The notes under the pieces were generated by a model. That model was not told the DNA's origin and did not search any database. It worked only from the letters and a program-made list of their open reading frames with translations. A stretch of 61,131 nucleotides of DNA, the filler included, from Sphacelaria rigidula (taxonomy: Eukaryota): NCBI GenBank assembly GCA_964200075.2. It is 4 parts of 4 records of this genome, joined end to end, with 100 filler letters (N's around TTAATTAATTAA, not from the genome) between each part and the next. Parts side by side here need not be neighbours in the genome. Positions count along the whole stretch, not along the records: positions 45,926 to 61,131 come from CAXNAA020001863.1; 3 more parts are not named here. The stretch is one strand, 5' to 3'. This document shows, in pieces, positions 1 through 61,131 of this stretch. Numbering within the stretch: position 1 is the first letter of the stretch; every line of letters begins with the position of its first letter. Both the position numbers and the translations under genes were made by a program.

Positions 1-300
1 AGCAAGATGCTGATGTTGGGATTGCGTCCAGTAAAGGAGGATTGCACGGCGGTGCAATTGCAGGTCGGATTCGCGTTTCCAAGACGCTCTCCGAAGACCG
101 TGCCAGTGTGTCTTATACATAACAGCGATCTTGCCTCCTCGACCACGGGTGATTTGGTGGCCGGAAATGGAGGACACAGCCAACCGACGGGGCTGTTCCG
201 TCACGTCGTCGGTTGTAACGTGATAGGGCGGGGACTTGGTCGAGTAGCTGTTGAGAACATACTGTGTGAGTCCGGCAGGTAGATACTTGGGCATGCCACT
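1..300 (-). pseudogene. Integrase C-terminal chromodomain-like region of the Gypsy pol
   Basis: Hand translation antisense to ORF 7..282 gives YLPAGLTQYVLNSYSTKSPPYHVTTDDV...ISGHQITRGRGGKIAVMYKTHWHGLRRASWKRESDL, a chromo-like I-x-x-H...Y-x-x-x-W-x-G...SW pattern. It runs off the contig. Confidence 0.75.
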
Positions 301-439: not shown

Positions 440-1110
440 GGTCCGACTGTCAGGATCTGGAATGGTCCTGTCCAATTGAGGGACACGTTTGTCCTCAAAA
501 CTGTTTCGTTGGCTGCCTTACTGGTGCCTTGGCGGATGGTCGACAAACTGTTGTAGATCCAAACCTAATCACCAACTTTCCAGTTAGGGCGTTTGTGCCT
601 TAGGTTGTAGAGAGCAGTGTTAGATCTCTCTAGGCGCGAGGCGTTGATAGCGTGTTGTTCGCGCACGAGGGTGAACGCTTTGCGTTGTCGTGCATGCGTT
701 AGCTTGTTGTAGGATATCTGATCCTGATCAAATCCTTGGTGTCGGTCGAACATGTGGCGCTCAAACACGGTGATGGGCAGCCGAGGGTAACGTCCAAGAT
801 GGAGTTCATTCGTAGAAAGGCCTGTGGCGGCATTAACCGAGTTGTTGTAAAACAACATGATGTGCGAGAGATGTTGGTCCCAGTCATTTTGGCGGTCATT
901 GACAACTATACAGAGCATCTGGGCCATGGTGTGATTAACTCTTTCGGTACTATCGTTACCGTTCGGGTGGTAAGCGCTCGTGAAGCGTTCCAAGAGCGCG
1001 AGGGTGCGGGTGACGCCAAGGTGGCATGACAAGTCTGTGTGGCAGCCTTTCATGACCCAGGGGCGCATTAATAATGGCACATATATGTGCGTTGGTTCGT
1101 CATTGAGTAG
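440..1110 (-). pseudogene. Gypsy integrase, internally deleted
   Basis: GCHTDLSCHLGVTRTLALLERF (HH half of HHCC) is joined directly to TSAYHPNGNDSTERVNHTMAQML...DWDQHL...YNNSVNAATG. The LNWTGPFQIL (GPF) motif lies at ~450-480. Confidence 0.88.
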
Positions 1111-1972
1111 TCGTGCGGTGCACCCCGTGGTTGAGGCGGCAATTGTGCCTGTCAAGGGCGTGGGCCGACGTACGAGTAGTTGCACGCCTTCATCCGTAGT
1201 AAAAAGGATGCCTTTACGCACTAGCTCGTATACGTCAGAAATAACTGGTGGTGGCAGTGTCCCAACCAGGGCCAGAAGTATAGACGGAAAAGGGACTGGA
1301 CAGCCAAGTTGTAAGTACCGGATGGCTGCGCGACATAGCGGTTCTGCGTGTTGTTCACAAGCCCAATCGCGGTGGAGGTAGCTGGTGAGAAACTCGCGTA
1401 GTTGACCTTCCGCTGGCGAGCCGACCAAACATGGTAGGACAGGCAGCGGGGGAATAGGCGACGGGGCAGAAATGCCGACGTCAATATCTGTTCCGGGAGC
1501 AGGGGACGAATCGTCAGTTCCGTGCTCGGGGGCAAAAGGTGGTTGCGGCGCCGTTATTGACGGCGGGGTTGTATCAGTGCGCGGCGAAAGTTGTCTGCGG
1601 CGCGTGGCGCACGGTGCAGAAGGTTTCGCGAAGCTTTGCGTGTTGATCCGCGGAACTTGTGCTGGGTGGCTCATAGAGGTTGCAGGTGTTGTCGGTGGCG
1701 GCGAGGCACTCGGTGTGGTGCGGGCGGCAGACCGGGAGCGCGTGTTGCCGGAGATAAGGTGGGTGACTGGGGGTGTCTCCGCGAAGAGTTTCGCGCGAGT
1801 ACCGAAAGTGCGAAAATCGACAAAATCGGAGGTAATGGGCTTTAACCCACCCAAGACGGCGTCATATGGTAGAAGGCGAGGTCCTCCCATATGCATACCG
1901 GTTTCCGGGCTCTGAAGGTCGAGGGCGTAAACGGGCGTTGAAAAACGTCTAATCACGTAAATTACGGGTTCA

Positions 1973-3330
1973 TCAGGTTCCGTTAAACGGCAAGCCGGGC
2001 TGGAATCTGCGGCCGTAGGCGGCAGAGGTAAGCGGGAAAGAAGATCCGCGTTTCCGTTGGCCTGGACGGTGCTTAACGGTATACTGGTACGCTGTTAGCA
2101 ACTCCAACCATCGTTGTACACGAGGGTTGTGTTCACCAACATTGGCGAGTTGTTCAAGTGCTCCGTGATCCGTATAGATCTCGAAGGGCACGTGAAACAG
2201 ATATTGTCGAAGGCGCTTAATGGCCCAAGTGATTACTCCGCCTTCCAGTTCTAGCGGGCTCCCAATTGGCCTCGTTGGGCAGAGTAGCGCGGTTGATGTA
2301 AAGGATGGCTCGGACAGAGCCATCAACCTGAGGTTGATTCCAAACTCCTCCAAAGCCATTTTTGCTGGCGTCAGTATGGAGTTGGAAAAGGCGGGAGCCA
2401 TCCTGTACTGCCTCCCAATAAGGAAAACAAAGTACGGGCTTTTCGGTAAGCGTCTTGAGTAATTCGCGGGTGATATTCTCCATTTCGGTGGTGAAAGAAA
2501 ACACGGCTCCTTTCTTGAGTAGTTTAGTAAGGGGGCGAATTCGTTTCGATAAATTCGGCAACAAATTGCGGTAGTAGGATAGCCCACACAACAATGAGCG
2601 AGGTCGAGAAATGTTAGTTGGCATCGGCAAATCAGTCATCGCCTTGACTTTGTTTGTATCTGGAAGCAGGCCTGCTGGCGAAATGGAATGTCCCAAGAAA
2701 TCCAAGTCAGTCGCGCCAAGGCGAGCGTTGGATGGAGACAATTTCAAATCGTGCGTGCGTAGGCGAGAGAGAAATTCTCTTAGAGTGCGTATATGTGTAA
2801 TAGGTGAGGCATCGAAAGCGATAGCGTCATCCAAGTACATGATGATGTGCTCGAGGCCGTCGGTGACGCGTTGCATTAAGCGTTGAAAGCATCCCAGGGC
2901 AGTGGCGGCGCCTTGTGGCATTCGAAGCCACTCATAAAGTCCGGACGAGGTACACAAAGCCGTCAGTGGGGCTGTGACAGGGTGTATAGCATTCTGAAAA
3001 AATCCAGAAGCGAGGTCGAAGGTGCTGAATATTTTTCCTTCGCCCAAGGAGTCGAAGACTTCATCAATGCGGGGAATTGGAAGATTACCGACTATGATGA
3101 CGCGGTTCAACCGTTGATATTTCACGGTTATGCGTATGTTTCCATCCTTTTGGGGGACGACCACAAGTGGCGAGGCCCAAGGAGAGGAGGAATGGTGTAT
3201 TAGTCCCGCTCCCAAATACGCATCCAAGATGGCATTAACTTTCTTGGTTAGGATTGGGTGGTACGATATGGCCGAGAAGAAATCGGCGAGACACCGGGTT
3301 GGAGGGCAACCTCAAAGGGCGGTGTTTTGC
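1973..3330 (-). pseudogene. Gypsy reverse transcriptase + RNase H (frameshifted)
   Basis: SSSPWASPLVVVPQKDG, LPIPRIDEVFDSL, FSTFDLASGFFQ, LYEWLRMPQG, MYLDDAI, FLGHSIS, LHTDASKNGFGG. A second frame gives LELEGGVITWAIKRLRQYLF...YTDHGAL...RVQRWLELL. Confidence 0.95.
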
Positions 3331-15209: not shown

Positions 15210-15309
15210 NNNNNNNNNNNNNNNNNNNNNNNNNNNNNNNNNNNNNNNNNNNNTTAATTAATTAANNNNNNNNNNNNNNNNNNNNNNNNNNNNNNNNNNN
15301 NNNNNNNNN
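15210..15309. other. Artificial contig-join linker
   Basis: N44 + TTAATTAATTAA + N44 (stops in all six frames). Confidence 0.98.
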
Positions 15310-30517: not shown

Positions 30518-30617
30518 NNNNNNNNNNNNNNNNNNNNNNNNNNNNNNNNNNNNNNNNNNNNTTAATTAATTAANNNNNNNNNNNNNNNNNNNNNNNNNNN
30601 NNNNNNNNNNNNNNNNN
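30518..30617. other. Artificial contig-join linker
   Basis: Identical 100-bp N44-TTAATTAATTAA-N44. Confidence 0.98.
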
Positions 30618-45825: not shown

Positions 45826-45925
45826 NNNNNNNNNNNNNNNNNNNNNNNNNNNNNNNNNNNNNNNNNNNNTTAATTAATTAANNNNNNNNNNNNNNNNNNN
45901 NNNNNNNNNNNNNNNNNNNNNNNNN
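45826..45925. other. Artificial contig-join linker
   Basis: Identical 100-bp N44-TTAATTAATTAA-N44. Confidence 0.98.
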
Positions 45926-47217
45926 CGTAGAAAACATTTTGACATACGGAGTGAAAAAAGATACGTATAGTGGTGACCCAACTGTTGCTAGTGTGGCGCA
46001 TAGGAGTCCGTCCATGCTGCAACCTGGAGCACACGCTGGTCGCGTGAACACCTGGGTACACCACGAGTAGCTTTTCAGAATTATTCCGATTCTAGAAGGT
46101 CATGCATTACAAGCTGAACGAGAGTGCTTCACCATTAACCACTTAACAGACAATTATATAAGATGAGGTTGATCAATGAAATGAGGTTTGAGGAGGCTCG
46201 CCTGTGTGCGCCAAACATCGGGGGAAGTACCGTCCGCGTGTGCCCTCGATCATTTTCGGGGAGGGCAAACAAGTGTCAGTGGCTGTACTTACCGTTCTTC
46301 GACTGTTCCTGTTTGTCTGCGGCCGGCGGCGGCCGGCGGCGGCGTGGAATTCCATCATGGGCTGGAGAAAAAACGGCGATTTAACAACACTTTGTCCCAT
46401 GTGGATCCGGTGGGTGACGGTCTTCTCGCTGTTACGTGCCTCGAGGCCGCTGTCAAAACGACAATCTCCGGCGCTGGTTTGCTCTCTAGTGACGTGCTGG
46501 AGGAAGGATGAACTGTTGCCGCAGTGACATCGTGAGGGGGCAACCAACTGCTGGTCACTAACATGTCTGAGATGGGATGGAGTTTCTCGTTTCGAGCGTG
46601 TTCGCACAAGGGAGACAACATTTATTACTCAAACACAGAGAGTACCGCAAATGTCCGTCGAGCCCTTCAACCCGGTTCGAGCATGTATGATGCACCGTTG
46701 GCGAACACTCGGCAGCTATGGCAGAGACCATGCCGCTGGCATCAGCACGCTCGTCAGTCTTCGCCGCACATCGGCATTGTCCACTCCAATTAGACAATCT
46801 TGCCATCTCGTTATCCAGCTTATGAACAATCCTCGTCGCACAAAAACACGCACCGTGCACAAAAACATTTCATACTCCCCTCTCCCGTACGGGCGCGCGA
46901 TTGTTTACTTGTCGGTTTTCGCATTTGAAGCGATATCTCCGGGATCCAGCAGCGATCAAACATGGCACATCCTGGCTTCCCAAAGACAAGACGTCATGCA
47001 TTAACTACAAAGGAGCAATTATTTTGTTACACTCACACTCTCGAACGGTAAGCGTGGTCGAAGCCGCCGGCGTCCCTGTCTTTACTGCGGAAAGTCGGGA
47101 ACACTGACCATCAACCCTTGGCCCTCTCATCATTGGCATCCAATACCCCCTTCGGCATCTTGTCACCAGAGTTGAGTTTCCCGCACGAGGCAACTACCAA
47201 CTCTGCCTGCATCCACT

Positions 47218-50200
47218 TCACATCCGGCACCAACCTACGCTTCTTGTCTTTACCGCTTGTAGGGCCGCTTTCACCGTCTTCCCCGGTCTTGTAGTCTGCC
47301 GTGATTTTCCCTCTTCCGCACTCCCCGATGCTGTAGTCGGAAGCGTGCTCTCAAATTGCGGATGTGGCAGGCGACCACCAGGGCACCTCGACTTGAGCTG
47401 CTCGCCGGTCACCTTCCCTACAAGAAATGGGGCTTCGTCGCCGAGGAAGAACACGAAGTCTCCCTTGGTGAAGGAGGGGACGTGCAAGATGTCGTCAGCG
47501 CTGCCGTCCCCATCGGTGTGCCCCCAAACCCAATCCCAAACCCGAACCCAATCCCAATCCCAAACCCAAACCCAAACCCAAACCCAAACCCAAACCCAAA
47601 CCCAAACCCAAACCCAAACCCAAACCCAAACACCCCCAAACAACAAAAACCAAAACCACAATCAAAACCCAAAACCAAAAAACCAAAAACCAAAACCAAA
47701 AACCGAAATTATCAACACCAACTTTCCCCGCCTTCTCACTGAGAGACGACTTCAACCCCCCCCCCCCCCGAACTTCCCATCTACACGAGCACCCCCGTGA
47801 GCCCCTGCCACCGCCTCTCGTGTTCCTCCAGACGGATGTACGTTTTCGCGCGTAAGCCAGTGACACGGGAGGCTCCAAGGTACATAACCTTTCGCTGCGA
47901 GACGTCAGTGTGACGTCGCTATCTCGCTCTTTATGGCCTCCTGTTTTTCGAAATATGCGTGACATGTCTTGCAGATGGGAGGGGGGTGGGGGCACGTGGG
48001 GTCTTGAGGATCGGGTGAATTCCATCTGGGGACGAGAATGGAGGACAGGGGTTAGCGGGAGGAGAACTCCAGGGCCACGGTCAGCATCGTGTGCGGGAAA
48101 TGCAATGAATAGCGATCATAATATTGCGTGATTGCGTGGGGTAAGTGCGATCGACACGCACCAAGAGGGTAGAGGGTGGCCAGTCGACAGTGCACGGCGT
48201 TGTAGCGAGCCTTGATGTTCTGTCGCACCGCGGCGTTCACCTCCTCAAGCTCGAATGGAGGTGCGCACTCGACATCTGGAACACCCATGCGGAAGAGCGG
48301 GTGAGGGGCTCCCTCGTAGATCCCCGCGGGCGTTTTCCCTCTGAAAACCGCGTCATGCATGTTCTTCTTCATGCCCACAGTGACCTGCTCAGTCCCTGCT
48401 GGGCGGATTTCGAATGAACGAGGCTGAGTCACCCCACGGAGGGGCCCCACGCGGCCACCTACACTCACGGCGGCTTTGAAGTTCCCCAGGGAGCGAAGAG
48501 TTGTGGTGAACACTGGCAGGGTCACGTATGCCCTCCGGAATGTTCCTAGTTGCTGTCGTCTCGTGAACAGACAAACCCTCTTGCAGTGTACCGAGATCCT
48601 GTGAAAACAATCAAGAATGCGTCATTGCCGGCTTGCGTCAAGTACATTGTTTTTCTCGCGTGTCGCATGTATACTTTGTGTCGAGCCCTGTCCCACAAAT
48701 GGTGGGGAAGCACCGCACGATTCTGAAGCGGACACTAACAAGGACAGGAATAGTCGTACAAGGGGAACCAACCTGGTCAGCAGATGGAAAAAAGATTGCG
48801 AATTTCGATTAAATATTGGCTGACCTACGTCGTGGTATTACGCCTAAATTGTTGCGATGGCGACGGCGGAATGGTTCCACCTCTTCATCCCGATGCACAA
48901 GTCGTGAGATCTCTTCCCCCGCATCGTGTCTGGGGATAGCTTACAACGGTTTTGACAACCGAGCGGAGAAAAACAGTTGTGTCGCGGACAAGAAATAATT
49001 CATCGTTTACGGGTCCTCTACATTCGTTCGTGTGATCATGTCTATCGTCGTTCATCACGTTAGTGACGTTGCGTTACCTTTATGTACATCAATCGTCATT
49101 CTTTTTCACTCTTCCATGTAGCGTGCAACATCGTCCCGACGCACCTTGAGAATACTTCGTCGATCATGATATGTGTATGGCCGACCATCGTGAAATTTAT
49201 CTCGACCCGACCGATCGTCCCGCGGGCCACCAGATATCCGAGGTACGCCAGAACGACGTGATTTTTGTTTTCCCCTACGCAGTGGTCGAGCTGCAGGAAC
49301 AGTTGGTCGATGTGAGCTCGTGTATCGCCGTCGCAGTGCAAGTCGAACAATCTGGTGAGTGCAAGGTGGATTGAAGTGCAAACAAGGTTGCTCCCTGTAC
49401 AGAGGCGAGTATCGACGGCGTCGGGGTCGTTAATGTTCAAGTATTCGCTGGAACCGCCGGCCAGGAGAGGTCGTGAATCATACGCCACGTTCACATAGCG
49501 GATGAAATATGACTTGCATCGGTGCGTGTATGCATGTGGATCGCGTGGGGAAGAGCACAACTCACCCCCTCCAACTGTCAGAGGGGACAGGGAGAACTCC
49601 ACGAATTGCCCGTCCACCAGGACCGCCATGATCGTTTGACGTTCCGCGTATCCCCTGCCAGTCGTGACGAACGGTGATACCGACGGCAAGAACGCGCACG
49701 AACCACTGTCGGCATCAACAGCGAAATGCAAAGCATTACTCGTTGAACTGAATATTCGCGTGATCGTTGTTGCGTCCAACTTCCGAACAGAAAAGGTTCG
49801 AGAATGAAAAGAAACTTTAGGAGGATATCAGTACGATCACAGCTCAGAAAGCGCCGAACATTCAGCGAACGGATCGAATTTATTGAATTTCGTTCATTGC
49901 CTGAACCTCTTGGACAATATATTGTGGCGATGTCTTCGTTCCTGTCGTCCATCAGTAGAAATGCTGAATCGTTGACCAGCACGATGATGAAGGGTCGCCG
50001 ACAAATCAGGAGAAATTTACGACGTTCGTGCTCGAGGCGAGGGTCGAACGCGTCTCCTGACTCACACCCAGGAAGGGAGACCCTGTGAACAACACCGGCC
50101 AGCACCTGGGGGGTCATCTCAAGAGATTGTAGCAACTCTCGCGTCGATCACCACCCCGAAATGCTGGAGCACGAGCCAGGGTAGCAATTCTGTTCGAGGG

Positions 50201-50630
50201 ATGACGTGGACCATCTCACCTGCAGGGTGTAGTATACCAATCCCTGTAGATAAGGCGAATGGTCAGGCCTGTCTGTGAACGATAACGAATCAGAGTACAA
50301 GCGTTGGTCGTCTATCCACTCAACGGTTGCTATGACCTCAGGACGTGATTTTTGTGCACCTCCTTTCATCGTGTAGCTTATGCGATAGACACGCCCCGGT
50401 TGTAAATAAATGTGGGCGAGAGTGCGACCTACCCTTTGAGTGGCTCACGGAATCCAATGAGCTACGAGTGAGCGCACGGGGGAGGGGGGGGGGGGGGGAA
50501 AACAAAGGCGTCGTCGGGGCCGGCGGTACAAATAGTTCCCCACCCGGCCTTCCCCCGTGGTTCCGGNNNNNNNNNNAGAGGGGGGGGGCGGGGGGTGGGC
50601 CCGCCCGTGGGGGGGGGGGGGGGAGGCGAA

Positions 50631-50669
<39 letters not shown>

Positions 50670-51819
50670 AAGACAAGTGCGTCTGCTGTGCTGCAGTAGC
50701 AATTGCTCGCCAACCTGTCTGTCCCGTGTGTCAACGGCGAGCACATTGGTAACGCGAACGCCGTCTGGGCCGCTGCGTCCGTTTGCATGGAGGTGAACTT
50801 GAGTGGGTCCATGTTCGATCGCCTCTGCTCGAATGGCCCCGGAGCTGATAGAAGCAAGTCCCTCTCGGTCTACCGTCAACGCCTGAGAGGATGACGACAC
50901 GTTGGCGTGGTGTCTTTGTGAGAGAACCACTTTGAAGTGCAAATAGCTGGGCGGGGCTGTTTTGGTTCGTTTCTCAGTGATGATGATTCAAAATGTTTGT
51001 GTGCTGATGCCCGGTCATAACTTTGGACCACTGTAGCTGTGCCCGGGGCACGACGACACGCGGGTCAGTGCCCTTCCAGCGATTGATCCCATGCCGCAAA
51101 CGGAAACGGGGCAGAATGGCGCAGGCGTTAAATATTCGACGCGCCTGTCGCATGAGAACTTGATACCGGAGCACTCGCCATATTCCGTGAACAAACCGAG
51201 GGCGAAAATCCTGCATGTGGAAAAGAAAAAGTAAAACAGATAGCGACGAAATACAATCGTTGATTAATCGAGCGCGGCGCAACAGAAGCAAGGCCCGGGA
51301 ATAATACTCTGAGAATTAGAGCTTGTGATCAGGAACCCCGTCGGTCCTTCCTGCGGAGCAGGTGAATACTAGATGGTGATACGACAGCGGGCCTAACTCG
51401 ACGGACGATATGGATGGGTTTCACCAATCATATCATGGCAGCAACCTTGCTCCGGAAATATGGTTAGTCAACAAAGAGAGCCAATGATGTTCTTGCCTTC
51501 ATATGCGCGACTTGCGCTGCCTTGGCACTCTCGATCGTCTGGGGGTCTGCCGTTACTCTCACACCTGCGGTACCAATTAGGGTGTCATGGTACTGTGTGC
51601 AGCTGTGGCATTTCATGAATGAGCATCTGGAGCGCGTCTTGTAGTTTGGTTGGTGTTCGCTCAGCTTCTGGTAAACGTAGCTTTGGCTGACCACCGTCTC
51701 TCCGACACGAATCGCCTCCGCTACGAAGGTGTCGTGTAGTTCCTGCGATATGTCGTGGATAGCGTCGGGCGGGATATGTTGAGGTGGTGGTGCGAGAATG
51801 CAAACGATATCGTTCGCTT
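47218..51819 (-). pseudogene. Intron-containing Sola-like (DUF7869-type) DDD transposase, decayed
   Basis: Exons 51819-51497 (FMKCHSCTQYHD...AHMK, GC donor), 50882-50715 (FTSMQTDAAAQTAFALP, one frameshift), 49654-49566 (IMAVLVDGQF), 49394-49145 (GSNLVCT...LFLQLDHCVGENKNHVVLAYLGYLV...FTMVGHTHIMIDEVFSR), 48598-48162, then a decayed tail (KGDFVFFLGDEAPFLVGKV). Splice phases are compatible. Confidence 0.85.
47523..47705. repeat. (CCCAAA)n microsatellite grading into (ACCAAA)n
   Basis: Direct reading. Confidence 0.9.
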
Positions 51820-51944
51820 CTGCGTAGGTGTGGCCTTGACAGTGGACAGGAGACTACCCACAGAAAACGATACAAGTTTTCCTGTCACTGTCCAAAACTA
51901 TATGTATCTCGATGTCGGGTTATCATTCATTTGGGAGCACGAGT

Positions 51945-54193
51945 AAACCGCTTATGCCGCCATTGTCACGAGAACATGAGAGTAATGCAGTTGAAAACAA
52001 TTTAACATTGCCTTGGCCTTAGTCAGCAGCATACACCAGACCGTGCGGTGAGCTTTTGACGAGTTGAACATGGCACACACGTGGGCAAACGTCCCCACTG
52101 TGGGTCAACTGTGTTGAACCAACAAAGGGGGGCGCCGAAATCCCTGTGACCATGCAACCCGTAGGATGCTCCTATGAAATACAAGCGCAGGGATATCCTT
52201 GTGACAGGGTTGACAGGGAGGATCATGCGAGTACGCACCTCATGTATCTTTCGACGGCTTAGTACTTTATTTTCAGTACAAGTCAAGCGTTACTTTGCTT
52301 ATGGATTTCTCCGCCGTGTTAGAACGAACCAGCCTGAAAATTGGCACAGCGGTAGACCACAACACAGACAGCATATTCCCGGATCGGCGGCACGTTTGAC
52401 GTGGTGTACCCGACGCACGGAGTGAATACGGATTCTGGGCAATGCCATCGATACGCCCTCAAAACGGAGTCCCCTCGGCCCAGACATTGTGAGACGTCAG
52501 TGAATGCATATATGGACACGCAGATGCGCTCACTTCCACAACATCATGACCTGCTGGGTGGCTCCTGCCCTGGCAAACGAGCATCGATCCGTACTGGGTA
52601 CACTCTGGATGATGTCATTCTGCGCGATACCTATCTTGGTATCGCCTGTAGAGGTACTCACTTCAGGAGGCACGGTCGTGCAAGCGCTGTCAGTGCTTTT
52701 CAGTGTTGCGCCAAGAGAAAGGAGAAGTCAATTGTACGCCGATTTTGGCATACAAGAACCATTATATAAATTACCAGCTTGGATCATCCGCAAAGTAGGT
52801 GTAGTTAACATGAGCGAGGTGCCCCAGAACGACGACCTACGGCCCAATACATGGCATATCTGAAAAGCTATTTTCAAGGCAGGATCGTCGGCACAAGTTG
52901 CAGGTCGCGAACGTGATCATATCCCGCATTCGGTGGTGTGTATGGTGTTGCTCGGTGCGAGTGCCTTGCGGGCTCCATTGTACGACGATAGGTGGCGACC
53001 ACGCTTATATATATGGAGTGTACAATCCGCTTGGAAAAGAAGCATCACGTTTACCCCATGCGTGTCTGGCCGCGCAGCTGATGGGTTTTGAAATTTGAAA
53101 ACTCCGTCATGAACACTATATAAAGTGAAGCATAATACGCCATGCAGTGTACGGTCTTCAGACAGTATACCCGTACCGTAATACTACATAACCGCATATA
53201 TATATATATATATGATGTGATATCCGGCGTAATCAGGGCGTAACCGCATCTCATGTTTATTTGAGTGCATTCCTCAGGCAAACCACCATTATGCAGCGCA
53301 ACGTGAGTTGTGCATTTGTCGCCTGTGACTGCGTGTTCCATCATGGAACTTTGCACACTACTAGCTGGTCACAACATAGGCAGCATATATGCCCGGAGCA
53401 TCCACGCGATTCGGCCTGGGAACACCTACAACATGGTCCGAGCCCATTGTGGGGAATGCCGTCCATGCGCTCTCAAATCAACCATACAGCTGCCAGACTT
53501 CGCGCACTACAGGTGAAAGCATATGTACACGCGCAGATGCACAAACTTGGACATTTAGCGCGGCTGGGCGGCCAATGTAGTAGAAAACTGACACCAGTCA
53601 GTACTGCAATTCTCTCTGGATCATGACCATCTGTAGTGTACCAATCGGCACACAGTCTGCAAAGCAGCGAATTTCATGACGCACGACCCTACGTGCGCTG
53701 TAGCCGCTGCAAGGCGCTTGAACTTTGCCCATATGCTGTACGAACCACAGTCGATAGTTCCACGTCGCTATATCTGGTATTGTGTGCTGCAGGAGTGCGC
53801 ACTGGGGGGAAAAGGGGTCAGATTCTGTTCCGTTTTTTTTTCTTTTTTTGGCGCAACACTGTTTTACGCGCTCTGTGTATTATGTACATGTATCATTTCC
53901 CATGCACACCACCTCTGCCGAGTTTTCTCTGGCGGCAAGGCATTTTTCCCCACACGTCCTGTTGCAGCGCACCGAAAAGGCTCAGTGGTTCATCACTGTT
54001 CAGCTTTGGCCGCCATCTGATACCTGTGGCGCGTGTTCTGGCCACCGGAAGTCGCTCAAACTGGCCCTTTTTCGCAGGGTGGCGATCCCAAACCACAAAA
54101 GCCTCTTCAAGATCGTGGAAACTTGACAAATAGATATTTTCGACATGCGTCACCCCCGGGAGGCTCGTACCAACCTCCCGAAGGGGAACCTTG
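51945..54193 (+). mobile_element. Cluster of the same Helitron-like family
   Basis: 54135-54193 matches rc of 18300-18360; 53885-54120 matches rc of 19385-19620; 51945-52070 matches rc of 19160-19265. Internal diverged duplication at ~52358-52600 / 53368-53620. Confidence 0.6.
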
Positions 54194-54335
54194 TGTGTAT
54201 ATATTTTATTTCTGATCACGACCTCGAGTGTTGCTATCAGCTACTGTGTAATGCGAGGTCATCATAATATTTTTGTGTTGTTTGGGTTTGGCTTTCGATT
54301 TGTGTTTGAGTTTGTCGTTATTTTTTTGTTATCGC

Positions 54336-54391
<56 letters not shown>

Positions 54392-54539
54392 GTTCTCACC
54401 CTTGCTGTTTGTCGTTGTTGATGGTGCTGTTGTTTTCGTTGTTATCGCTGCTCCCTTTCTTTCTTTTCTGAGGCCGTTGCTTCTGTCTTCTTATGTTCAA
54501 ATCTTCCTTTTTTCTTTCATTATGTTTTTTTTTCCTGCT

Positions 54540-54628
54540 CCTGCCTACGGGGTGGATTGGTGCAATCAGCGAACGTGGGATAATCGATAAATCAATCAAT
54601 CGATCAATCAATCGATCAATCAATCAAT
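54540..54628 (+). repeat. LINE/SINE 3' end with (ATC[A/G])n tail
   Basis: Pyrimidine-rich tract followed by GATAATCGATAAATCAATCAATCGATCAATCAATC. Confidence 0.6.
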
Positions 54629-55459
54629 AGCTCTCCGGGACTGCAGGCGAAAATGTCATAATACGCCCACTTCCAACGAGTACAAAACTGCTGTGTGTGG
54701 CACGGTGCTACAACTGTAGCCAGAGCAGACACGCAATACACATGGTCTACATTACACACGTCATTAGGCGTAAATACTCTCCCCCCTGCTACTGACTGCA
54801 GGGTTTTTCCAGCCTGCTTCTGAACTTCCTCGCTGGTTGATACACCCGCCCATCCAGGCCGTACCCACTCCCCCCTCTGCCGCTTGTCACGAGATTATAA
54901 TAGTATGCCCTCCCTGTAGAACCTACGATACACCGGCGCGCTTCCTTCCGTGCTGTATGCAGTTAACGCTAACTTCATACCACGGAAGCTGTGATCTAAG
55001 AGGCGCGCACGGTGGTCGCACACCTTTTTCTTGCGCTCCCGAGTCTTGCGAACGATCACGCCGCACCAAACCACCCATGTTATATCTCCACAGCACTCCA
55101 CGTTCCACTATGAACCTCTTTAGAGGGGGACGGAATACAATACGGAACACGTTTGTACGATTTTGCACAGATTGTCATTATTCATGGGATATCTCATAAC
55201 GGATCAATGAATGTTGTTAACCAGTTCAAGATAGGAGGCAGCTTACGTGGGGGTCTGATGCAGGCGTGGTGGTTGTGAAGGCAGTATTTTTGTAAGGTGC
55301 AGTTCGTTATTGCAGATTCTTGCCCGCCGACTCCCTTGCGCTTTCCGATTTCTAATTATTATATACCCTTTGGATTTCAGCACAAATGCTTGACCGTTAA
55401 ATCTCGTAATTTTGACAAAAAACGAGCCTGATACTATAAAATACAACATTTTTTAATTT

Positions 55460-56242
55460 GTCGCGCCCTGTTTTTCATTCCACCTGGGCAACCTTCAACG
55501 ACGTGGGAGAGACATTGTCGGCGCGCAACACGTATGACAAGCTCTACATGTTCATGGGGATCATCGAGGCTATCCAAGAGGGGGCGAAGAAGCAAGATGT
55601 CGGAGCAGACGCGATCGCGCAGGAGTTCTCGAACGTAAGCACGAATCACCATTTATGTGGTTGACTCCGCTTCTGTTCGTAGGGTGTATCCGCACATGTT
55701 TTCCTACCCGATAAAATGCCTGGATTTGATTCGAGCGAAATTCGATCGTTAACGTCGAGGAGGGTCCGATCAACTGTCAACTTGCCATCGACAAATCGAT
55801 GATATAATTCGTCAACGAGCACTTCCTCGCGACATAAAAGTTATTGTTCTATCGGTCCAATGACCGACCGCCGTCGTCATATAGTGTTGGATTCACACAC
55901 ACACACGGTCATTTCGATACCCTCCAAAACAAACAGCCACACGACACGCAAGTCTTGTCTCTCACGTCGTTTATTACAGCTCGTTTTGTCCCCTGGTACG
56001 TGGCAAAATACGAGGAAAAAACACAAAAGGGCTTCGTCGCGGTTCGTATTTTCACCAGATGGGCCCTCCTGAAAAACACAAACAATCCACTTGTATCTTC
56101 CTGCCGTATGTTATAATTCGAGGCGCGGCGAGACGAGCAATTCCCGCCACCGCTGAAGATGGCTCCACCTTCTTCATCTGCGGGGCTATCCTGACAACAA
56201 AATGTGTCAAAGTACTGCGAATATATATACGTGTCCGTTTCC

Positions 56243-56286
<44 letters not shown>

Positions 56287-59200
56287 ACCACCCCCCAGCC
56301 AACCAAGCNNNNNNNNNNTGCCTTGATTTTCGGACACAGTGCAGCTATAAATTGTGTGCAATCATCAAACACACTTGTTGCATTCCGTCTCGCCCCCCCC
56401 CCCCCCCCCCCCGCCCCCCCCAAAAAAAAATGGATGAATCAGACAAAACGGTGCGGCGCCTACTGTGTCGGCTGGGCTACACGGAGTGCCTCGCATGACC
56501 GGCGTGGGGAAAAATATGAACAAGGGTGGAAACTCCTAGCTGTTCGTTGTCCTCGGCTGTTGGCATTTCAATGTATGTGTGGATTCAGCCTCCGCAATCC
56601 AGCCACAATTTTTCGTTATTGGGGGTAAGACTATCTTTAATGGCGACGAATCTCGATTCTTTTAGAGTATGTCTTCTTGGATTGGTTTACGCACTGCTTT
56701 CTGCTAGCGCACGGTACAGTACAGTATTTGCAGTTCCTTTCGGCAGAGAAGAGTAGGGGGTACCTTGGATGCCCCCTACTCGTATGCCTCTGTGTAAAAT
56801 AAGAAGTTCAACGTTAAGAATTTCGGGGTTTTCACATCTTCGACCAATTAGAATTTGGGTTTAAGCATTTATATACTGAAATCGGAGAGAAAATAAGATG
56901 CCGAGCCTCGCTTTGTACAGTGTATCTTTTGCCGACCTCGTGATCGATGATACGTAATCCCAGCATCCCCATCTACGCCTCTTTTGCTGCCCGAGACTAC
57001 CAGCTGGGCATACAACCCACCTCGCTGTCGTCACTGCGGTTCTGGAAGAAGGTATGCCTGGCGACGTCACCAGAAGCCCTGAAGACCATCGCCTGGGCGT
57101 TGCGGTGCGAGGACCCCGCCGTCGACCCCGGGTTCATCTCTCTGTCCTATCTCAAGAGCAAGCCTTTTCGAGACATGGAAAACAAGCCCGTGGCCCAGGC
57201 CCTCGCGATCAACATGCTAGTCAAGTACACACAGTCGATATCGACCTCGGTCCGAGGTACCCATGATCTTTATCGTACCGTACGCCTGAGTGAAGCATAC
57301 GATGTAGCAAAAAAAGAAGCGTGGTCGTATTTCTCGGTGTCATTTCATATGAAGTCTGGTGTTTAGATAACCGCACAAGTCGACGCCGCTTGTTGTCCAC
57401 AGGTCCCAGAAATCGAATAGGACGGCACCACAAACGAAGGATTGGGGAGGGATTCCCGCGAACGCGCACACAGCCGCAGCCCTGGTGGAGCGAGTCGAGA
57501 GTCACGTCCCTCGTCAAGCGTGGACCAGAATTTTCGACAGGTAAGCGCGAAGAACTTGTAGCATGTTACTCGATAGGGGTGAAGCGCGACGATTGTTGCG
57601 GCCACTTCGCCGGTAGGGACCGTCGTGTGTGTGGCAAGTAAATGTGATCGGCCGCCAGTATGTCTGCTTTCAGTCCTTGTCCTTGTTTGATTTGCTTGGG
57701 TCCAATCGATGCGAGCAGTGAAGTTGACGAAATCGTACGCGGAAAATATGGTGCGGAATATTTCCAGCTGTATGTCGCGGACTACATCAACTCAGTGGAC
57801 AAAACCATGGACGAAACTAGGGCACGTCTGCCCGAACAAGGAAGGACCGGAGCAGCCACGGAGGAATTCGAGGATGTCTGTCGGGGCAAGCTCCCACGGC
57901 GGCTAGACCTGATCAGTCACTTGAACCCAGAGTTCCGGGTTCCCCCTACAACGACTTGAACATCACGCTATGTCTCGGTTGCGAAACCGCCTGAAAGACA
58001 TAGGTGAAGAGTTGCTTCGGCAAATTGCCGTGGCGAGTCATCCTACAATAAGGGGGGGGGGGGGGGGTTCGGGGCGATATATGATTGCACAAAAAAATAT
58101 GCTCATATGCTTGTCAGACGACCTACCGCTGTCGCGGTGCGCTTGTAATCGGTTGAAAACGGTGTCAAGCAGTATGAATGAGCGTTGTATATCTATGACG
58201 AGTTCGTCCGAACAACCGCTGCCGCTTCCAGCGACGATTTGAGTTGAAATTTCGTGCAAGAGGTTGCCTGAAGTCCCCCCCCCACCTATCGTAGGATGAC
58301 TCCGACGCGAACAGTTTAGCTCCACTCTACCGACTCGCCAGCATGCCGGTCTTCTAGTTTCAAACACAAATATAGGGCACCCCAGATCGCCGTCGAACGC
58401 GAACGTGGGCATCGCAAGAGCAACGCACGCTGTTGATACATGGCGACCGTCTGCGGTGTAGTGGGCACGCGATGGGCTCTCAGATCATTCAGTAACGTCA
58501 TGAGCCGCCAATTGGTCAACATGCACGCGATTTTATGGTTCGGATGGCCTTTTGATCATCGCGCGGTTTCGCAGATATCGCACAGAGGGACACTAAGGCG
58601 GTATAACGATGAATGGAGGGAGAGATGGGACGACATGAATAGTGTCATTGCACGCATGAAGTTCGCGAATGTGGGCGACAGCGGAGACGGCAACAAAGAC
58701 GGGAAATAATCCGAAGAGGATACGGAAGAGCCCCAACGTCTGGCGGCGGACAGCCACAAGGATGAATTGTGCCCCTCGTGCAATCCATCACGCGATGTCA
58801 GGTGAAGACGAAGGGCATGAACCGGAATGCCAACCAGTCGTGGCGATTTGGTGCCTGACGGTCGATATCGCAGAGGGCCAAGCGGCCGACCCCAACGGCG
58901 GTGCGTTCGGATCGGGCCCCTTGCACATTCCGAACGGTTAGCCTGCTCCTCCGCTAACCGCTTGACCTTGTCCTGTGATTCTTGACTGGCAGATACCAAT
59001 GAACACACTCAGACCTTCTGCGAGATGCTTGTACCCATCTCTGAGGACGCTTCGCTGGCCGAGAGGAAGCGGCGTCTTTGCCTGGTCTGCGAGGACGAGC
59101 CGGGGCGCCAGAAGAGGAAGGGGGGCGAAGCCGACGGCGTCGAGGGCAGCGACAAACCAAATGAGAAGGGAAAGAGGTCGTCGGAAGAAGGGCTTCCTCT

Positions 59201-60650
59201 TCCCCCCCTGTGTCCGACCGTGGACGACAGGAGGGGCGAATACAACGAACAAAAATAACGGTTATGTCATCGATTGATCGCTCTTGTGGTGATGAGCCGA
59301 GCCGGACTTTTGGAGTCAATATCTTGCTTCGCATGTCATTTTTGGGGCATGCTATTGTAGTGCTGAGTCGTCCTGCGATTGGGGGGGGGGTCTGATTGCA
59401 CGAAAAAAAAGGCTCATAAGTGTGCCGCACGACTTGCCACACTCGCGGTTCGCTGGTATTTGGTTCAAAACGGCGCCAACCGATATAAATCATCGTCATT
59501 TTTATATAACAAGCTTGTCCGAGGAAGCGCGAACAAGCTTGTCCGAGGAAGCGTTGCTGCTTTCGACGACGATAGTCAAAGACAAAGTGGAGTACGGTCA
59601 TCCCCTCGCCAGACTACCTGCGGCAGTCGCAGGTTTTTTATCCGTTGCGCACCTCGATGGAATACCCATGACACCCCAGAGGACGTGCGGTCGTCCTCCG
59701 CTCACCGAAGTGAAGCACACGATGATACCGAATTATTGCGCTGTTTGACTGCACAGAGCTCATCATACCAGCGTACACGAGGAGAGCCTACTGCGCCGCA
59801 ACTGCGCTCTTATCGACGAACGAGAACCACTCCCTGTGAAGAGACAGCCGAAGCTAATCATGGTCTCCATCGACGGCGAAAAAACAATATTGAGCTTGAC
59901 AAACAATGATATCAAGCGATATTTCAAGCGGTTTGTGGAAAAGGTGCTACAAGCCTTGCATCCGATGGGCACCATCGCGTTTGCGGTTCCCCGGCCGTGG
60001 GATCAACACGGACATCGAATCCGAGGTACTACGGCCTGCACATCACGTGTCCACCAATACCCAACGTAGTGGCGGGTCAAAGATCGAAAGCCGTGCTTAT
60101 GAAAATGCTTTGTAGTAAACAGTATCTATGACACGCTCACGGGATGGCGCGAGCTTTGTTTATTCCGTCCCTGTCGACCGCGCTTACCTTCTCTCAACTT
60201 GCAATAATACCTTGTCCCACGGCGATATTCACACCCCACCCCTAACCCCTCACCCTCCGCCGCCGCTGCGATCCACTACCACGGGTATCCTATCGTAGGC
60301 GCGATCGCTGCCGACCCCTCCATGGTCGTCGAGACCGAATTCGTGCTAGTAGAGTGCTCCAGCCGCCACGGAGGTTCCCGAAAAGGATACGAGAATCACC
60401 ACTTCTACCCTCACGTGGAGGCAATCATGGTGGTACACAAGCAATCCACCGAAGATGCCAAGACATTCACGGTAAACCCGAGGGTTACTTTCGCCGATCC
60501 ATACGGCACCAAGAGCACCGGAAAAGTATCAGATTGCTGGCAGAAGATAGGCGGAGGGCCAAAAGACAAGCTGATGTACAAACAAGGAGGGCCTATCGGC
60601 GGGCCGATCAGTTCTTCCCCGCCCGGGATACTGACGACCTTCGTCAAAAG
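55460..60650 (+). pseudogene. Decayed multi-exon gene; 3' exons resemble a beta-class N6A/N4C DNA methyltransferase fold, 5' exon possibly ParB-HTH-like
   Basis: Exon-like blocks: ~55460-55633, 55981-56105, 56963-57257, 57402-57540, 57719-58032 (frameshift in C5), 58295-~58460 (two TAG), 58574-58800, 58992-59260, ~59515-59710, 59848-60025 and 60299-60650. The last two splice in frame. Confidence 0.6.
58035..58302. mobile_element. TIR element coinciding with a GC-AG intron (introner-like); related 5' parts at 59365-59445 and 61039-61131
   Basis: GAGTCATCCTACAATAAGGGG ... CCCCACCTATCGTAGGATGACTC. Shared body TCCT.C.AT-G(n)-TTGCAC.AAAAA...GCTCATA.G..TG.C in three places. Confidence 0.72.
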
Positions 60651-61131
60651 GTGATTCCTTTTTTTTTGAAGTGGTTCCCCCTCCTCCCTGCGGTCATGAT
60701 GTACATATTATTACGACTCAAACATATCGTTTTTTTTCTGTCGATCGACGCCGAGATATACAGAGCCGTGAAAACTGATGGCGAAGTTAACCTTCCTATC
60801 GTAGTGGTCAGAAACATCCGCGAGTGTCTGACATGAGATCCCTGCCCTATTGTCAGGTTGGGGAGATAGGTATATCAGATGGGTCAGAATAATGCATATA
60901 TCACGTTCGTATACGTTCGACTTTGACTTCCGATACATTTGCAGCACGTCATAAATAGTCAGGGACGAATCGCACAGGGTATACTGCAGCACCTCTTGTT
61001 GGCTCCGCCAGATTGACATGACTTGTATTCGAATAGGTGAGACATCCTACGATAGGGGGGGCGGGGTATTTGGTTGCACGAAAAACGAGGCTCATAAGTG
61101 TGTCAGACAGCGTCCCACACTTGCGTAGCGC

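Follow-up and report, generated by a model that had tools for sequence, protein, structure and literature searches.

The closest described counterpart of the locus studied here, a transposase gene and a divergent, intron-rich accessory gene in the brown alga Sphacelaria rigidula, is a giant Sola-1 transposon of the brown alga Ectocarpus. According to the sections of that report drawn on here (PMC12477816, Genome Biol 2025), Ectocarpus has one Sola-1 family of 1989 copies, 2 of which are intact, and the 21.5-kb element Sola1-1_Ec32 carries an opposite-strand gene for a 1104-aa protein with ParB-like and N4-cytosine/N6-adenine (N4C/N6A) methyltransferase parts, which was predicted to write N4-methylcytosine (4mC) or N6-methyladenine (6mA). 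The same sections state that Ectocarpus has negligible 5-methylcytosine (5mC) and is without classical repressive histone marks. A transposon that encodes DNA-binding and DNA-modifying proteins of its own may mark its DNA or protect it, and such self-marking is of special interest in Ectocarpus because of these features. The hallmark of Sola elements, in the excerpt of PMC3845634, is terminal inverted repeats with a 4-bp AWWT-type target duplication.

Other systems resemble the locus in part. The red algal Plavaka elements, with their accessory genes PAG2 and PAG3, are likewise giant DNA transposons that carry DNA-modification-type and ParB-like accessory genes, and in the Bostrychia preprint (bioRxiv 10.1101/2025.02.11.637652) it is suggested that these bind the DNA of their own element and modify it. 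They differ in that an N6A methylase joined to a SET domain and a ParB-like domain joined to a 2-oxoglutarate (2OG) oxygenase are encoded by separate genes of another transposon superfamily. PAG3 also lies beside tandem inverted-repeat arrays, whereas no such (parS-like) arrays were found near the gene studied here, only microsatellites and homopolymers. In chlorophytes and chytrids, the part of PMC4738411 used here describes 'chlorophyte-type Dam' methyltransferases that are fused with a helix-turn-helix of the ParB type and are derived from phage ParB-Tls loci. These eukaryotic N6A-type enzymes can be likened to the locus, but no ParB match was obtained for it, and they belong to the M.EcoKI/M.TaqI-like group, whereas the signals reported below are for PF01555, a family of the beta class, which is permuted. 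The same text describes methyltransferase-fold domains of DIRS1, a mobile element, and of METTL14 that are inactive, with disrupted active-site motifs; both belong to a methyltransferase clade other than that of the locus.

The locus lies in a window of 61,131 nt, the whole stretch of S. rigidula DNA analyzed (assembly GCA_964200075.2). The window is a composite of four pieces of about 15.2 kb, joined by spacers made of 44 N's, the six-frame stop linker TTAATTAATTAA and 44 N's at 15210-15309, 30518-30617 and 45826-45925. Since the pieces are artificially joined, features on separate pieces are not genomic neighbours. The gene and the transposase are both on the contiguous piece 45926-61131 (15.2 kb, record CAXNAA020001863.1), whose left limit is the artificial spacer at 45826-45925.

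On this piece a plus-strand gene, starting from about 55440 by the list of open reading frames (ORFs), diverges from a series of minus-strand ORFs at 47218-51853, of which ORF 49096-49827 (-) matched the Pfam family PF25273 (DUF7869) at 3.8e-19. The head-to-head arrangement of the gene with a transposase, proposed in an earlier sequence-only reading of the stretch, is borne out by these results. Its larger proposal, a large transposon with divergent methyltransferase-like cargo, matches the published layout and agrees with the divergence, multi-copy cover and conserved splicing seen here. The novelty that it attached to an intronised methyltransferase partner on a transposon falls away, because this arrangement is already in print in the cited sections of PMC12477816.

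Altogether, the gene is real, conserved, spliced and multi-copy, and it belongs as an accessory gene to what is probably a giant DNA transposon of brown algae. Its kind, and probably the family itself, has already been described. We consider it rather likely that the locus is the central part of a giant Sola1-type cut-and-paste transposon copy, with an accessory gene of the kind that combines ParB-like and N6A/N4C-methyltransferase parts. It shares with Sola1-1_Ec32 the brown algal host, a gene that faces the transposase from the other strand, a probable product of the methyltransferase type and multiple copies, in a comparison made by description only, and we read it as the same type as this giant Sola-1 element with few intact copies. 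The piece is shorter than the published 21.5-kb element, and both element ends, with any terminal inverted repeats and target duplications, lie outside it. Unlike the published prediction, the part of the gene seen here has no canonical catalytic motif, and only about half of the 1104-aa product fits on the piece. What the present analysis adds is the conserved splicing, the near-absence of the family from protein databases, and a seen half without this motif.

The accessory gene is spliced at a conserved junction

Exon 1 (59757-60025, plus strand, within ORF 59749-60069) and exon 2 (60299-60650, plus strand, within ORF 60208-60654) are separated by a 273-nt GT..AG intron at 60026-60298 on the plus strand, with donor GAG/GTAC and acceptor TCGTAG/GC. 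Splicing from 60025 to 60299 keeps the frame, and both flanking ORFs are stop-free; reading through 60026-60298 meets three stops. The junction is spanned by all three of the S. rigidula partial gene models that cover it (P0003, P0007 and P0010), and the intron is skipped in these spliced models. Judged from genomic sequence and gene models, the exon junction is more than chance and the splice is conserved.

The sequence-only reading had joined 59848-60025 to 60299-60650 in frame. Its junction stands, on the GT-AG letters and the gene models, but its start of exon 1 does not: P0009 and P0010 match the ORF upstream of 59848, at 70-76% from the ORF start, so the 5' boundary of exon 1 was placed near 59757, on the basis of the AG at 59755-59758, where the exon probably begins. 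Exon 2 closes with the first two bases of a split codon, and the donor GT follows at 60651. The exon is followed by the 5' part of the next intron (60651-61131, plus strand; donor AAAAG/GTGA), in which no further ORF match was found and within which the piece ends. The same reading held that both genes carry frameshifts or stops, but none was found inside the two exons, and the ORF breaks elsewhere fit introns equally well. Three short contigs of run X8, whose kind was guessed as 'RNA?', lie on predicted exons, and two of them start fitting at 58990 and 60297, which are predicted acceptors, after 37 and 34 unfitted letters. These contigs were not counted as evidence of expression or splicing.

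Relatives are few in protein databases, and the exons point to several diverged copies

A HMMER search with exon 2 against 1.84 billion representative proteins returned 6 proteins at E <= 0.001, of which 4 are real relatives, all short fragments: P0001 (75% identity), P0003 (56%), P0005 (38%) and P0006 (35%). The others, P0002 and P0004 (3397 and 2817 aa), are tandem-repeat proteins and were dismissed by eye. Three relatives are partial gene models of S. rigidula itself, namely P0003, P0007 (a member of the P0003 cluster) and P0010. Two others, P0009 and P0001, share one run-derived contig of 6828 nt and are 70-76% identical to the two exons. No longer homologue was found through the exon-2 alignment in a word-index search, which is weak evidence, and the same alignment gave 27 pattern matches in metagenome_contigs and 40 in viral_contigs, 0 of which were confirmed. 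By these searches, the gene family is nearly absent from protein databases.

Copy number was checked by aligning the public contigs of three DNA-like runs (X1, X2 and X4) to 56330-61131. Over 59711-60676 the summed contig depth was 189-336 in X1, 107-162 in X2 and 203-429 in X4, and the depth of exact-match contigs was 17-30, 9-20 and 18-33, respectively. The many contigs that are 90-99% alike over the exons pile up to roughly 7-12 times the exact-contig depth in each run. Summed depth is not a copy number, and the cover was therefore read only as several diverged copies; in that sense it points to exons that are multi-copy. The sequence-only reading had named a single-copy host gene as the finding that would speak against it, and what was found is multi-copy exons by contig cover in three runs.

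Copies also differ by an in-frame indel, in that 114 nt of the window (59134-59247) are absent from other copies and the joint 59133->59248 occurs in runs X2 and X4; the skipped stretch falls inside the Lys/Glu/Gly-rich putative exon described below. The introns of the gene hold three copies of an interspersed repeat (58035-58310, 59381-59560 and 61039-61131), whose 67-nt core is 70-78% alike between copies and in which a G-run is followed by ...TTGCAC...GCTCATA.... In all four runs, contig depth over this repeat exceeds that of its flanks by a factor of hundreds to tens of thousands, and contigs join copy to copy. This extreme depth suggests a very abundant short element that is MITE- or SINE-like.

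The exons likely have a methyltransferase-like fold

Two methods connected the exons to PF01555. In the ESM Atlas, the top three clusters for exon 2 were PF01555, with scores of 0.87, 0.87 and 0.86 (recognition 3124), and the ten best family-bearing matches were all of one family or clan. For hhalign, the query consisted of the exons joined by coordinates together with eight relatives (9 rows, Neff 1.7), and the template of 14 PF01555 enzymes, namely E. coli YhdJ and 13 phage methylases. The spliced family scored 25.1 against this template (P 0.0073), with query 46-142 aligned on YhdJ 51-137; this score was reached by 0 of 200 column shuffles (maximum 21.5), and the reversed query scored 13.0. 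A relaxed (greedy) alignment was collinear over all 210 residues, covering YhdJ 14-210 and stopping just before motif I. The exon 1 half was the source of this signal, as it scored 20.3 by itself (P 0.014), which none of 100 shuffles attained. In addition, a hidden Markov model (HMM) of the 14 methyltransferase sequences ranked the exon 2 ORF 1st and the exon 1 ORF 5th among 116 plus-strand ORFs, in collinear register, with E-values of 1.9 and 4.3 for the exon ORFs. The locus is thus like bacterial and phage PF01555 enzymes, such as YhdJ, in a weak collinear profile match from the strand-4 region to just before motif I, and unlike them in that it has no significant HMMER match, no [DNS]PP[YFW], spliceosomal introns and a eukaryotic transposon context.

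Several results weigh against a methyltransferase assignment, and against the ParB-like part that would accompany it. The Atlas scores are below 0.9, with only 113 of 256 features shared, and serve as a lead only; exon 1 reached 0.81 with no family. Exon 2 alone was aligned by hhalign out of the correct register, with a score of 16.0 that 10 of 100 shuffles also attained, the addition of five longer enzymes to give a 19-sequence template lowered the score of the spliced family to 18.7 (P 0.068), and one of six unrelated controls (accC) scored 19.6 with this template. No Pfam match, PF01555 included, was found at E <= 10 for either exon, the read-through P0011 or 8 homologues; there was no NCBIfam match for the read-through and no PDB match, by sequence or profile, for the exons. 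An AlphaFold2 prediction of the read-through with the 9 rows was unusable (mean pLDDT 32.5, pTM 0.22). Among the 116 plus-strand ORFs of 51800-61131 there was no ParB-profile match, the best having an E-value of 0.59 in the wrong frame. Finally, the locus was compared with the published 1104-aa protein by its description only, and the domain of that protein which Pfam can detect may be encoded entirely downstream of the part seen here.

On balance, a methyltransferase-like fold appears likely, mainly because the weak signals agree with the published annotation; the fold is read from these signals together with the paper, and a methyltransferase function would follow the same reading. The order of motifs IV-VIII and X that the sequence-only reading had described is consistent with the collinear alignment to the 14 enzymes, but was not recovered with the 19-sequence template or with exon 2 on its own. 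Under the preferred reading, the two genes would diverge from a shared spacer of ~3.5 kb, with a minus-strand transposase that includes the DUF7869 region on one side and the plus-strand, intron-rich accessory gene on the other. Of a permuted, beta-class methyltransferase-like module, the two exons would most likely supply the first half, which comprises the strand-4 region, a strand of the 'RVLKpGG' type and the 'hE-x-I...K' segment. They would end immediately ahead of the helix that leads into motif I, and motif I itself (FxGxG) would follow in the next exon, beyond the end of the piece. Its ParB-like part would allow the accessory protein to recognise the DNA of its own transposon.

An open-ended ORF at 1-282 (+) was also considered as a methylase, as tblastn of 19 bacterial and phage methyltransferases gave three weak motif X-I matches there (76-246, E 0.075-1.9). 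It was judged a chance match, being on another piece, with no Pfam match and a chance-level PDB match (ribosomal protein S21e, E 0.38).

The seen half of the module has no canonical catalytic motif

In beta-class methyltransferases, the catalytic tetrapeptide [DNS]PP[YFW] constitutes motif IV. The wider pattern [DNSH]PP[YFWH] was found in no plus-strand frame of the gene part on the piece, a lone SPPH at 58274 lying inside the interspersed repeat. Exon 1 contains R-Q-P-K and S-I-D-G stretches and an LHPMG-type strand. In the hhalign register, the DPPY of the enzymes stands over R-Q-P-K, and both relatives have R-P-P-K; in the register of the sequence-only reading it stands over S-I-D-G, and the relatives have S-I-D-A and S-I-D-V. 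In either register, the canonical tetrapeptide is missing from all three covering sequences (the window copy, P0009 and Sphacelaria). The earlier claim that DPPY is replaced by SIDG thus holds as to the missing motif, but the hhalign register puts R-Q-P-K in its place.

The loss in all three sequences argues for a family trait rather than the decay of one copy. It further suggests that the module is non-canonical or inactive, or alternatively that the Pfam-detectable domain lies wholly downstream. Inactivity is suggested by the loss of the motif, with an uncertain alignment register. We lean slightly toward a module that serves as a non-catalytic or non-canonical DNA- or AdoMet-binding part rather than as a standard 6mA/4mC writer. 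A more specific idea, which we regard as tentative and somewhat doubtful, is that of a conserved pseudo-enzyme with a degenerate catalytic loop (R-[QP]-P-K or S-I-D-[GAV]) that writes no 6mA or 4mC and acts on the DNA of its own transposon as a reader or anchor guided by ParB. If this were true, the protein might for example shield this DNA or mark it for the transposase, which would be in keeping with an organism whose DNA methylation is negligible, and the published prediction would then need revision. More generally, the absence of the motif from the seen half matters for the question of whether 4mC/6mA is written as predicted.

Alternative explanations

The same accessory gene could be present with the two exons encoding a linker or a second, degenerate module, and with the active domain wholly beyond 61131. 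That HMMER sees no PF01555 in 210 spliced-equivalent residues, which also have no catalytic tetrapeptide, favors this explanation, and there would be room for a whole further domain, as the coding potential on the piece comes to about 560 aa (a rough ORF sum) against the 1104 aa given in the cited sections of PMC12477816. Eukaryotic methyltransferases with a second, inactive domain are also described in the excerpt of Iyer et al. (PMC4738411). However, the collinear hhalign match stops exactly where motif I would be expected, and the Atlas neighbours of exon 2 are PF01555, so that we regard a linker or second module as unlikely. It is less probable still, and in our view quite improbable, that the exons belong to a brown-alga-restricted transposon protein of another fold whose resemblance to methyltransferase motifs is due to chance. 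Such a protein would leave all standard searches blank, as was observed, and would be consistent with the 4 real relatives among 1.84 billion representatives and with an unrelated control that reaches the profile-profile signal once the template is changed. Chance resemblance would not readily explain why two methods acting on different halves, the Atlas on exon 2 and hhalign on exon 1, agree on the family and the expected order, or why a methyltransferase is described for this gene position in the literature (PMC12477816, sections as above).

A single-copy host gene, or a methyltransferase of an integrated phaeovirus or giant virus, might also merely neighbour the transposase. Only one copy is visible in the window, and integrated viruses are present in brown algal genomes according to the excerpt of PMC3627910. 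Against such an origin stand the spliceosomal introns, with a junction that is kept in the gene models, and, in three runs, a cover by 90-99% alike contigs that is several-fold in excess. Moreover, no relative was confirmed in viral_contigs or metagenome_contigs, and the gene models are known only as fragments. We consider a host or viral gene very improbable, and the accessory gene of a Sola1-type transposon remains the preferred reading.

Putative upstream exons

Upstream of exon 1, three further plus-strand segments are candidate exons. The 5' exon of the sequence-only reading corresponds to 55440-55634 (within ORF 55440-55664), which would join a putative exon at 57004-57256 in frame across an intron of 1369 nt. 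The latter lies in ORF 56944-57366, has acceptor and donor letters, and is helix-turn-helix-like by eye only, as is the joined product of the two. A Lys/Glu/Gly-rich putative exon follows at 58993-59258 (ORF 58986-59258), with acceptor CAG at 58990-58992 and an X8 contig that fits from 58990 on. Neither Pfam nor NCBIfam gave a family for the upstream ORFs scanned, and no longer homologue of ORF 56944-57366 was found in a word-index protein search, which is again weak evidence. When 55440-55634 and 57004-57255 were aligned by hhalign with 9 phage ParB proteins, the score of 14.1 was inside the shuffle range (median 12.4, maximum 20.5). The earlier suggestion that the 5' exon recalls the N-x-x-R...IA helix-turn-helix region of ParB was thus not supported by the ParB profile, Pfam or NCBIfam.

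The transposase region and sequence context

The other six of the seven transposase-region ORFs scanned had no Pfam family below E 0.05, searches of PDB and NCBIfam gave no match for the transposase, and the name DUF7869 was not found in the papers searched. The Sola label of the transposase is accordingly a putative one that follows the paper's description of the same layout, our own match being to DUF7869 only. The last minus-strand ORFs contain a (CCCAAA)18 array followed by a CCAAAAA-type array (47523-47708), which translates as long runs of GF, GL and WV dipeptides; a microsatellite is more probable here than coding sequence.

The minus-strand series 47218-51853 is interrupted by a 10-N assembly gap at 50567-50576, and a second 10-N gap is found at 56309-56318. 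Each of these lies beside a G or C homopolymer run of 50-60 nt, and together the runs appear as an inverted repeat with a spacing of 5.6 kb. This repeat is most likely a low-complexity or assembly artefact and not a transposon terminus. On another piece of the window, long minus-strand ORFs (509, 220 and 364 aa) at 565-3311 resemble the pol region of an LTR retrotransposon by eye, with reverse transcriptase, RNase H and integrase-type stretches.

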